From: Rhynchobatus australiae
Taxonomy: Eukaryota
NCBI GenBank assembly: GCA_034780895.1
Contig: JAUZTB010000042.1
Coordinates: forward strand, 8,227,497-8,291,496
Length of the DNA: 64,000 nucleotides
Direction: 5' to 3'
In this document: piece after piece, positions 6,286 through 62,893 of the stretch
Layout: each line of letters starts with the position of its first letter
How positions within the stretch are numbered: the stretch's first letter is position 1
Made by a program: the position numbers and the translations under genes
Notes under the pieces: generated by a model
What the model was told of the DNA's origin: nothing
The model's input: only the letters and a program-made list of their open reading frames with translations
The model's database searches: none

Positions 6286-6481
6286 GATGGCGGCTTGCTC
6301 ATTAACAATCCTTGTGCACTGGCTATACATGAGTGTAAGCGCCTTTGGCCAAACACACCCTTTCAGTGTGTGATCTCTCTTGGAACTGGACGCTATGAAA
6401 CATTGGGGAAAATCAATGTGACTTATACAAGTCTCAAAACAAAACTGACTAACGTAATAAGCAGTGCCACAGATACAGAAG
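6286..6481 (+). CDS. PNPLA8: Calcium-independent phospholipase A2-gamma (PNPLA8 or PNPLA8-like), penultimate coding exon
   Basis: Polypyrimidine tract plus AG acceptor (ttttccctccattAG, 6284-6285) and donor GTTAGT at 6482. The 196-bp exon encodes DGGLLINNPCALAIHECKRLWPNTPFQCVISLGTGRYE...SLKTKLTNVISSATDTE. It begins with the patatin catalytic DGG motif and closely matches vertebrate PNPLA8. Confidence 0.96.
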
Positions 6482-10870: not shown

Positions 10871-11190
10871 TCTCCTACATTGCAATAGTAATTCCACTTC
10901 AAATAGATTTCATCATCTGTAGAAAGCACTGATGTTCCTGATGCAATAGATATTAATGTCTATTAACGTTCCTTCACTCTGATTTCTTTGTTCCCTCCCT
11001 TTCTGTTGCTTGTTTCTAACTTCCCAACTGTTGAATGCATTAAGTGTCTCCTGTCCTGCTTCTTTCTGCTCTCCGGAGAGCACACAGGAGAATCACCTAC
11101 TGTGGTTAGAGCAGCATTATTTCTTGTACTGTGTGTGCTGGAATAATTCCACCTCCCTAACAAGTAGCACTTGCTCAACTGATTCAGCAG

Positions 11191-11500
11191 ATTGGTATTG
11201 GTATTGGTATTGGTATTGGTATTGGTATTGGTATTGGTTTATTTTTGCCACTTGTACCGAGGTACAGTGAAAAACTTGTCTTGCGTACCAATCATACAGG
11301 TCAATTCATTACACAGTGCAGTTACATTGAGTTAGTACAGAGTGCATTGAGGTAGTACAGGTAAAAACAATAACAGTACAGAGTAAAGTGGCACAGCTAC
11401 AGAGAAAGTGCAGTGCAGTAAGGTGCAAGGTCACAATAAGGTAGATCATGAGGTCAGAGTCCATCTTATTGTACAAGGGACTATTCAATAGTCTTATCAT
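11191..11500 (-). mobile_element. Rex/Babar-related element 3' end with expanded (ATTGGT)n microsatellite tail
   Basis: (attggt) x about 8 at 11191-11238, then the family body ending at IRLLN. Confidence 0.8.
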
Positions 11501-11622
11501 ATTATAACACAGTTACCTCTGTCCAGAACGCACTTGAGCCCATGTGGCACCGACTGGTCCTGGAAATCACCCATTGTACCCATGGATACCGTGTGCTCCT
11601 CCAGTGACACACAGGCACTTAC

Positions 11623-11738
11623 CCTCTCATAGTCGAGGGACATCGATAGGATCGACACAGGCTCCTTTGAAAGCGTAAACTCTGCTACGATGAAGGCTGA
11701 GTGAACAGTGTCAAGAACCTTCTGGACTTTACCATCTC
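11623..11738 (-). CDS. Semaphorin (SEMA7A-like) next Sema-domain exon
   Basis: Acceptor gatttttgttcccacAG and donor AGG|GTAAGT. The 116-bp exon (phase 1 to 0) is in frame with 12999-13194: (G)DGKVQKVLDTVHSAFIVAEFTLSKEPVSILSMSLDYER. Compare SEMA7A DRGTIHKVVEP...FAFNIMEIQPFRRAAAIQTMSLDAER, which ends at the same motif. Confidence 0.85.
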
Positions 11739-12998
11739 CTGTGGGAACAAAAATCATCCCCAAGAGTTCAGAACAATAGGAATTCACATTGCTCATGTTG
11801 GGACATTTGACATCACTGGCACAGGATTCCTGCCCAGTGATTTTGTGGAGCCGGAAGGTAATTTACTACTGTGGGGTGTGGCACTTTGTCCCAAACTGCT
11901 GAATGACTGATGTGGTAGTCATTGTACTTTGTACGCTCCGAAGCGTGGTGTCCTTGAAGTCAAAGGAACCAAATTCTAGAGGCGGAGTCTAACTTGCAAC
12001 CTTCAGTATACTTGGAATGTACCACACTGACAAATGTTTTATGATGTGAAGGGTGCTAAATAGAATTAAAATCTTCCTTTACAATGCCCCCTTGCAGGGG
12101 TTTACCTCGGGAAACCACCTGTTCTCCCTGCACAAGTTCGTTCTGCAGCTGACACAGATGGAGAATTCAATGGATCCACACATTGACAGAGTGGGTCACA
12201 TTACTGCAACTGAAGCGTCAGTTGATTCACTCCCACTTTGGATTAATTGGATTTTAACAAGTCTCTTTGCGCGTTGGTCAAGCCCAAATATCCCAGCAAG
12301 GAGTTTACCCACTTTACGGACCCAAGAGGCAGATGTTGGGGAGGGGTGGGGGAAAGAGATGGTAAACACCAGGACAGGGGCACAGGAATTTCAACCAGAC
12401 CAATTTGCAGGGAAAGGTGCAGTGAGTTGTGATTTGCCCACAGGGTCATTCGGGAAAAGATCTGAAGCATTAGCAAACTCTCTCACACATCCACTGAAAG
12501 GGAGCTGGAAGCAGTTTCAGTTGTAACATTGAGTTAGATGGGAGATGAGGTGAGGAAGCTTGTGTGGAGCTTATGTGCTGGGATGGACTGGGTGGGCCGA
12601 ATGGCCTGTTGCTGCACTGTACATCCCATGTAATCCTACACAAGCAGGATCCAGTCATCTCAAGGTGGGAGCCATTGTCCCTGACGTCCCCTTCATTTAT
12701 TTTAATCACATTATAAATTGCCATGTGAACATTTACAATGGTAACTCTATGTAAACATGTTGCTCTGTCATGATACCCACCTACCATGGGTGGAACTGTA
12801 TCCCTACTGTTGGAGAGCAAAGGAGCTTCCAGAGATTAATTAGGTTGCTCCACCAAAGAGCCAGCATTGGAATGATGGGCTGAATGAACTTACGTTATAC
12901 AGTTCCTTTGTACCACCGACAGTCAATGCGTTGGACTACAATGATCTACAACAGCAAATTAGGCACTTTCAGAACAACTGCTGGCTATCAGCACCTAC

Positions 12999-13194
12999 CC
13001 GTCGCCACGTAGAGGACACGGGACACATCTCCACTGGGGCCAACCACGGAATCCACGACTATTTTCTTGAAGCGATTCTGATAATTGATCACCAAGGGAT
13101 TTCTTCTGATAGGATGGATCCAAGACTCCATTTCAGGATAATCCTCTGCAAGAGCGAGTACTTGATCCGGCAGAACCTTTGTGTTACTGACACA
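12999..13194 (-). CDS. Semaphorin (SEMA7A-like) Sema-domain exon, antisense within the PNPLA8 last intron
   Basis: Minus-strand acceptor cttcctgttattgttccttcattgttgcAG and donor G|GTAGGT. The 196-bp exon is open (phase 0 to 1): CVSNTKVLPDQVLALAEDYPEMESWIHPIRRNPLVINYQNRFKKIVVDSVVGPSGDVSRVLYVAT(G). It aligns by eye to the SEMA7A segment CLPDQQPIPTETFQVADRHPEVAQRVEP...QKVAVHRMQASHGETFHVLYLTT. Confidence 0.85.
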
Positions 13195-61120: not shown

Positions 61121-62893
61121 AGAAACATAGAAAAACCTACAGCACAATTTAGGCCCTTCAGCCCACAAAGCTGAACAGGTCCCTACCCTAATTACTAGGC
61201 TTATCCATAACCCTCTATTTTTCTCAGATCCATGTACCTATCCAACAATCTCTTAAAACACCCTATCGTATCCGCCTCCACCACTGTTGCCGGCAGCCCA
61301 TTCCACACACTCACCACCCTCTGAGTAAAAAACTCACCCCTGACATCTCCTCTATACCTACTCCCCAGCACCTTAAACCTATGTCCTCGTGGCCACCATT
61401 TCAGTCCTGGGGAAAAACCTCTGGGTGACTATCCACCTGATCAATGCCTCTCATCATCTTACATACCTCTATCAGGTCCCCCCTCATCCTCTGTCACTCC
61501 AAGAAGAAAAGGCCTAGTTCCCTCAACCTGCTTTGATAAGGCATGCTCCGCATTCCAGGAAGCATCCTTGTAAATCTCCTCTGCACCCTTTCTATGGCTT
61601 CCACATCTTTCCTGTAGTGAGGCGACCAGAACTGAGCACAGTACTCCAAGTAGAGTCTGACCAGGGTCCTATATCACTGCAACAATACCTCTTGGCTCCA
61701 AAATTCAATTCCCCGATTGATGAAGGACAATACACCATATGCCTTCTTAACCACAGAGTCAACCTGTGCCGCTGCTTTGAGTGTCCTATGGACTCGGACC
61801 CCAAGATCCCTCTGATCTTCCACACTGCCAGAGTCGTATCATTAATACTATATTCTGCCATCACATTTCACCTACCAAAATGAACCACACTTATCTCCAC
61901 TTGACACTTGAACTCCATCTGCCACTCCTTGGCCCAGCTTTGAATCCTATCTATGTCCTGCTGTAACCTCTGACAGCCCTCCATACTATCCACAACACCT
62001 CCAATCTTTGTCATCTGCAGACTTACTAACCAATCCCCCCACTTCCTCATCCAGGTCGTTTATAAAAATCACAAAGAGTAAGGGTGCCAGAAAAGATCCC
62101 TGAGGCACATCACTGGTCACCGACCTCCATGCAGAATATGACCCTACGACAACCATTCTGTGTGCCAGCCAGTTCTGGATCCACATTGCAATGTCCCCTT
62201 GGATCCCATGCCTCCTTACTTTCTCCATAAACCTTGCATAGGGTACCTTATCAAATGCCTTGCTGAAATCCATAAACACGACATCTACTGCTCTTCTTTC
62301 ATCGATGTGCTTAGTCACATCCTCAAAAAATTCAATCAGACTCGTAAGGCAGGACCTGCCCATGACAAAGTCATGCTGACTATTCCTAATCATATTATAC
62401 CTCTCCAAATGTTCATAAATCCTGCCTCTCAGAATCTTCTCCATCAGCTTACCAACCATTGAGGTAAGACTCACTGGTCTATAATTCCCTGGGCTATCCC
62501 TACTCCTCTTCTTGAATAAGGAAACAATATGCACAACCTTCCAATCATCTAGAATCACTCCTGTCTCCATCGATGATGCAAAGATCAGAGGTGCTGCAAT
62601 CTCCTCCCTCACCTCCCACAGCAGCCTGAGGTGCATCTCATCCGGTCCTGGCAACTTATCCAACTTGATGCTTTCCAAAATTTCAGCACCTCCTCTTTCC
62701 TAATATCCACATGCTCAAGCTTTTCAGCCCACTGCAAGTCCCCACTACATTCCCCCAGATCTTTTTCTGTAATGAATACTTTTTCGGTATTCACTAAGTA
62801 CCTCCGCTATTTCTTCCGGATCCATACACACTTTCCCACTGCTGCACTTGATAGGCCCTATTCTTTCACATCTTATCCTCTTGCTCTTCACAT
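61121..62893 (-). mobile_element. CR1-type LINE (HER1-like), RT region and 3' end, degenerate
   Basis: ORF 61986-62678 has RT motifs [41 protein letters not shown]. Frameshifted continuations follow, with a typical 3' tail (reverse complement of tagaaacatagaaaaacctacagcac). Confidence 0.93.

Follow-up and report, generated by a model that had tools for sequence, protein, structure and literature searches.

Two semaphorin 7A-like exons assembled antisense in the last intron of a presumed PNPLA8 gene of Rhynchobatus australiae: seemingly a gene fragment out of place or an artefact of assembly

A total of 64,000 nucleotides of the Rhynchobatus australiae assembly (GCA_034780895.1, contig JAUZTB010000042.1, positions 8,227,497 to 8,291,496 of the forward strand) were analysed, a stretch hereafter called the window, whose own numbering is used unless another scaffold is named. 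Two semaphorin exons were found on its minus strand, exon A at 13194-12999 (196 nt) and exon B at 11738-11623 (116 nt), separated by a GT-AG intron of 1260 nt (11739-12998) and furnished with AG acceptors preceded by pyrimidine tracts and with GT donors. Spliced together they gave 104 codons with no stop, exactly as a sequence-only reading of this DNA had described them. Moreover, both exons matched the Pfam Sema profile (PF01403), one above the cut-off (E 1.3e-12) and one below it (E 0.0013), in agreement with the domain identity claimed earlier; the matches covered consecutive parts of the profile (positions 69-144 and 139-180 of 182) and hence a partial domain. The fragment corresponded to residues 331-434 of the Pristis protein P0002 (331-396 for exon A, 396-434 for exon B), and its exon phases (0-1 for exon A, 1-0 for exon B) were those of the equivalent exons in a second class-7 gene on scaffold C86. 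When exon B was read through its own donor, a stop appeared after 41 further codons.

On the plus strand, a penultimate patatin coding exon (6286-6481, with AG and GT sites) and a last coding exon (15421-15695, with acceptor and stop read from the sequence) continued in frame an upstream exon with a weak Patatin match (E 3e-4, below the cut-off). We take this host gene to be PNPLA8 on the basis of its motifs, and the antisense placement of the semaphorin exons within its last intron holds as assembled. A Pfam scan of the neighbours, covering 68 ORFs out of 890 candidates plus a few more, returned only Patatin, RVT_1 and one weak DUF match, the RVT_1 match (E 9e-23) being a 237-aa reverse-transcriptase frame of a LINE fragment at 61989-62699. 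In addition, positions 34001-36000 were CpG-rich (GC 0.51, 81 CpG in 2 kb) and are probably the promoter of the next gene, from which antisense transcription toward the host 3′ end might arise; the ORFs tested there by Pfam profile scan gave no match.

No other semaphorin exon was detected by tblastn in the window with three full-length relatives, nor in the 204 kb around it with the two relatives tabulated, and exons for the start, the signal peptide, the PSI and Ig domains and the anchor were all missing from this searched region. The exon that follows exon B at a distance of about 150 nt in copies 1 and 2 of the family was also absent from the window locus. The assembly had no N between 6484, at the host penultimate exon, and 14581, while sequence could be concealed by a 100-N gap and, in the 80 kb below the window, by a total of 26,009 N. 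Thus, the idea of a possibly complete nested class-7 gene was not upheld, as full-length relatives found just these two exons here and the rest of the family on scaffold C79; the exons are intact, as they had been called, in their reading frame and splice sites but in no further sense. It seems that no new nested gene lies here, and that the locus is an ordinary displaced gene fragment or an assembly error.

Among 30 longer protein candidates, exon A was matched by three ray proteins only: P0001 of Pristis pectinata, annotated as 'semaphorin-4D-like' (92% identity), P0002 of Pristis, 'semaphorin-7A-like' (86%), and P0003 of Mobula hypostoma, 'semaphorin-7A-like' (73%). None of these 30 was identical to the fragment, and there was no candidate of 36-116 aa. 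Class-7 semaphorins comprise a signal peptide, a seven-bladed Sema propeller, PSI and Ig domains and a GPI signal, according to PMC6016892 and PMC3137789. P0002 was found to contain a Sema domain, a PSI domain and a weak Ig match, the relatives also having a hydrophobic C-terminus. Its best solved-structure match was human SEMA7A (PDB 3nvq, E 5.7e-94), compared to 1.2e-64 for SEMA3A; exon A alone matched SEMA3A and SEMA4D first. These ray 7A-like matches and the structure match of P0002 bear out the SEMA7A-like character first attributed to the peptide, while its being a possibly lineage-specific semaphorin is contradicted by annotated relatives in rays, sharks and chimaera. The order and boundaries of the window exons are common to P0001, P0002 and P0003; however, these are products of 470-625 aa from a different chromosome-scale contig, whereas the window holds residues 331-434 only.

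Two class-7 lineages in cartilaginous fishes appeared in trees of 42 and 32 rows, which were constructed from selected database matches with quick and FastTree methods and contained no named mammalian row; the two lineages fell in no clear relation to the tetrapod-type rows. The lineage of the window was duplicated in Pristis, stingrays, Rhincodon and Hemiscyllium in the quick trees. In a synteny search, the nearest ARID match on C79 was 6 Mb off, with no close linkage. Although human SEMA7A was the best structure match of P0002, the residues of P0002 aligned to the human RGD, a position outside the window fragment, are KND. Furthermore, an RGD near residue 460-493 was observed in 3 of the 17 proteins checked (P0003, P0006 and P0012). 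A class-7 gene of the second lineage was located at C86 6941611-6956148, with 80-86% likeness to Mobula 'semaphorin-7A' in several exons, adjoined on the opposite strand by a diverged paralogue (6901904-6915467).

The full-protein search of the genome for this family, in which 70 of 101 candidates were scored, led to a SEMA7A-like tandem cluster at C79 6794617-7003168 (6.79-7.00 Mb). It contains at least four genes as judged by four last exons, namely three near-complete copies and a fourth last exon, and a further exon A is carried by the small contig C13666. Exons 233-293, 294-330 and C occurred three times each, always on C79 (all 10 and all 5 candidates being scored), and neither the rest of C42 nor the unplaced contigs yielded any remaining exon. 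In the assembly the cluster is fragmented and in part mis-oriented, the N-terminal part of copy 2 appearing inverted in the scaffold. Among its copies, exons A and B differed at near-intron rates (pN 0.08-0.14, dN/dS 0.35-0.90), compared to a pN of 0.02-0.03 for exon 233-293, a faster change possibly due to diversifying selection or to a relaxed surface. At C79 6989597-6990634, copy 3 has no exon B in the assembly; what stands there instead is a longer LINE together with a hairpin repeat, a 44-N gap and foreign DNA of 350 nt that is unique. The 3′ exons of copy 3 are open, with 1 of 44 conserved columns broken.

The semaphorin piece was 3.1 kb long, introns included, and its intron DNA within 11615-14581 aligned to the cluster introns at 75-86%, which excludes a processed retrocopy, as both introns are kept. 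The intron between exons A and B was homologous to that of C79 copy 2 (13.7% different), and the upstream intron (13195-14581, minus strand), with a repeat at about 14091-14510, was homologous to C13666 and C79 (13-14% different over 13225-14080). Overall, the window intron differed from the cluster introns by about 13-14% without gaps, at near-equal, star-like distances that gave the window branch about 6.8%. Moreover, a tract of 112 nt at a contig edge (12531-12642) showed one mismatch to copy 2 in an intron otherwise 14% different, and is either a gene conversion or a borrowed contig edge.

Downstream of exon B, the piece continued with 8 nt of intron, an old, dispersed repeat of which the 5′ half is present (11500-11614, minus strand) and a LINE 3′ tail (11191-11499, minus strand), followed by locus-unique sequence (10875-11170). 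The old repeat belongs to a family with 233 candidate copies, of which 40 were scored, the others among those being 80-86% alike. Its 3′ half was found in C79 copy 3, where a tail of this LINE family comes first and the remaining half of the repeat second; these are followed by an 8-nt target duplication that repeats the beginning of the intron, by the remainder of the intron and by exon C. In the sequence of the repeat, the two halves join to within a few letters. The piece in the window and the 3′ half of copy 3 thus come from one gene, and copy 3 represents the donor lineage. Position 11614 was therefore ruled out as the outer breakpoint, the repeat insertion being common to copy 3, and the host join is in or at the LINE tail, where the semaphorin piece terminates. 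This tail, which ends in a hexamer microsatellite and carries an AATAAA-type polyadenylation signal at 11243 on the minus strand, belongs to a LINE family that we take to be of Rex1/Babar type. A first look gave 7079 candidate copies, of which 40 were scored, the best other copies among those being 94-95% alike. The window tail showed 11 differences in 274 positions from the consensus of 20 close copies; copies lay 4-7% from the family consensus according to the consensus chosen, which is compatible with the age of the intron, and the PF09004 C-terminus was present in 2 of the 3 longer copies tested.

The other junction is concealed by a 100-N stretch (14582-14681). The 8 letters to its right matched the donor intron at 7 positions, 20 nt upstream of where the counterpart of 14581 lies, in a post hoc comparison with a background of 0.8-6% depending on the span. 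When 57 gaps of 100 N in the assembly were examined, 10 of the 16 that were measurable were negative, that is, overlaps. The test for a target duplication of the insert gave a P-value of 0.08, and none of 29 family copies showed one. A three-letter match of the gap edge to the end of the hairpin repeat was found at 5 of 376 edges.

Contigs of sequencing runs covering 11400-15400 were searched in 4 of 13 runs (the best 32 of 116,181 pieces). The junction between exon B and the old repeat was bridged in the runs X1, X5 and X6, and three organisms or more therefore have the piece in their DNA; these contigs are nevertheless silent on its location, because 11614 is the repeat insertion common to copy 3. 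None of these 32 pieces from the four runs crossed the LINE tail or the 100-N gap. In X1, which may be the source of the assembly itself, the depth over the piece was about single (8.3, 7.3, 7.4 and 6.4, with one piece at 15.4) compared to 7.1 for the host intron, and a single contig covered 11802-12203 at 87% likeness. Since exon B had only three copies in the whole assembly (the window copy and two on C79) and X1 gave that single contig, a real insertion would require that the donor exon B has diverged, lies in the 44-N gap of copy 3 or has been lost.

Regarding selection, 6 of 42 conserved columns were broken in the window exons, compared to 5 of 330 in the cluster exons (P-value of 0.0004; neutral expectation 3-5), in a count that omits one column at an exon boundary, this column being broken in each of the three copies of a control exon. 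The erosion concerned exon B (5 of 18 columns, P-value of 0.03), including an otherwise invariant serine, and not exon A (1 of 24), with a P-value of 0.06 when the comparison was made with the same two exons of the paralogues. The pairwise dN/dS between the window exons and the paralogues, a comparison proposed in the sequence-only reading, varied from 0.49 to 0.74, but is uninformative as a test of function, given that the cluster paralogues span 0.35-0.90 in the same exons, and a value below 1 says little. The frame and splice sites survived neutral simulations in 5-13% of cases at 6.75% change and in 17-30% at 4%.

These data bear on a working nested element, in which the exons would be spliced into a putative antisense transcript back through the PNPLA8 3′ end, serving as a regulatory RNA or giving a short product that ends at the stop at 11500 and uses the polyadenylation signal of the LINE tail. 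All four splice sites and the frame are intact, the contigs over the exons were 90-100% alike in four organisms, with the listed exon B pieces free of gaps, and both the AATAAA-type signal and the pairwise dN/dS would suit such an element. However, the exons needed for the beginning, export, PSI and Ig domains and anchoring are missing at the locus, the paralogues show similar dN/dS values, conserved residues are eroding, and the protein candidates included neither an identical protein nor any of fitting size. Furthermore, about a quarter of a seven-bladed propeller (architecture from PMC6016892) would presumably not fold alone, and we regard such an element as improbable. A bolder version, in which 5′ transduction by a fish LINE would have picked up 3 kb of an unspliced semaphorin pre-mRNA and carried it antisense into PNPLA8, with the exons still spliced and kept across several ray species as a new sense-antisense pair born of a retrotransposed gene piece, is very improbable.

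A far more serious contender, which is nonetheless the less probable one, is a chimeric assembly join at the LINE tail, the exons then belonging to the middle of a working SEMA7A-like gene of the C79 cluster whose exon C and last exon are the 3′ half of copy 3. The piece holds exactly what copy 3 is missing, namely exon B together with the 5′ end of each insertion, and the 3′ exons of copy 3 are open. The two LINE copies, of the window and of copy 3, have in common an identical run of 55 nt, which also occurs in 4 of 39 other copies and is a natural site for a misjoin, and the two have no private change in common. The fragmented and partly mis-oriented state of the cluster, the single depth in X1, like that of the host intron, and the 112-nt tract nearly identical to copy 2, which is easier to explain inside a tandem cluster, point in the same direction, and the frame and splice sites would need no luck, compared to a simulated neutral survival of just 5-30%. 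Against such a join, exon B has 5 of 18 conserved columns broken, with the otherwise invariant serine among them, and the donor-like letters beside the gap would have to match by chance. It would also require that C79 was misjoined a second time and that an exon-A contig of foreign origin was placed in the hole. Moreover, since the foreign DNA of copy 3 had a GC content of 0.49, compared to 0.34-0.41 in the host intron, a simple reciprocal swap does not account for it, and no target duplication was found for a swap either.

The explanation that we favour, at somewhat better than even confidence, is that of a real copy without function, some 5-7% in age, which arose by means of the LINE tail. 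The gap-free assembly from the LINE side to 14581, the donor-like letters at the gap edge, the finding that 100-N gaps are often overlaps and the eroded columns were counted in favour of a real insertion. The lack of contigs across the junctions among the pieces searched, the erosion lying all in exon B, the low simulated survival, the lack of the donor exon B from the assembly, the 112-nt tract and the empty target-duplication test were counted against a dead copy. According to this favoured explanation, an old repeat and then a sense-oriented LINE tail would have inserted just after exon B in the lineage of copy 3. Fish LINEs recognise their own 3′ tail, and soon afterwards, at about 5-7% neutral change ago, an unspliced pre-mRNA ending in the LINE tail would have been reverse-transcribed from that tail and inserted in the host intron, 5′-truncated at a short microhomology, which amounts to a 5′ transduction. 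The frame and splice sites would then have persisted by chance in a slowly changing genome. A second event would be needed for copy 3 itself, because its LINE has foreign DNA on the 5′ side. The fragment would encode nothing that folds or is exported, since it has no start, PSI, Ig or anchor exon and about 104 of the approximately 430 residues of the propeller would not be expected to fold.

The RNA route is suggested by the LINE tail lying in the sense of the semaphorin transcript and by the piece stopping at that tail, and takes a little over half of the probability given to a real insertion. Nearly as likely, DNA repair templated from the LINE homology would yield the same product. Such 5′ transductions are known for SVA elements (PMC3287187), where the cargo is likewise upstream gene sequence that precedes a sense-oriented element, the piece ending at the 3′ tail of this element; however, the SVA case described there gained its 5′ cargo by splicing, whereas here the introns are kept, the tail is that of a fish LINE and a target duplication is not detectable. 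The locus also resembles a duplicated (unprocessed) pseudogene fragment arising from ectopic recombination or repair at a repeat, in its retained introns, one end in a high-copy repeat and eroded conserved residues, and this origin, the RNA route and a misjoin are not separable on the present sequence.

The locus seems to be undescribed: no literature was found on a PNPLA8-semaphorin antisense locus, on duplication of semaphorin 7A in cartilaginous fishes or on vertebrate semaphorin phylogeny among titles and abstract beginnings, few subscription papers being covered. Should the insertion be real, it would offer a clean and datable example of how gene sequence with its introns moves in association with a LINE in a cartilaginous fish. 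As a dead fragment or a misjoin, it has little importance beyond the caution that, where a genome evolves slowly and is fragmented, open exons within an intron do not necessarily make a nested gene. Of more use is the donor, a tandem cluster with four or more SEMA7A-like genes, in which exons A and B differ far faster between copies than a neighbouring exon does, and whose lineage is duplicated in several sharks and rays.
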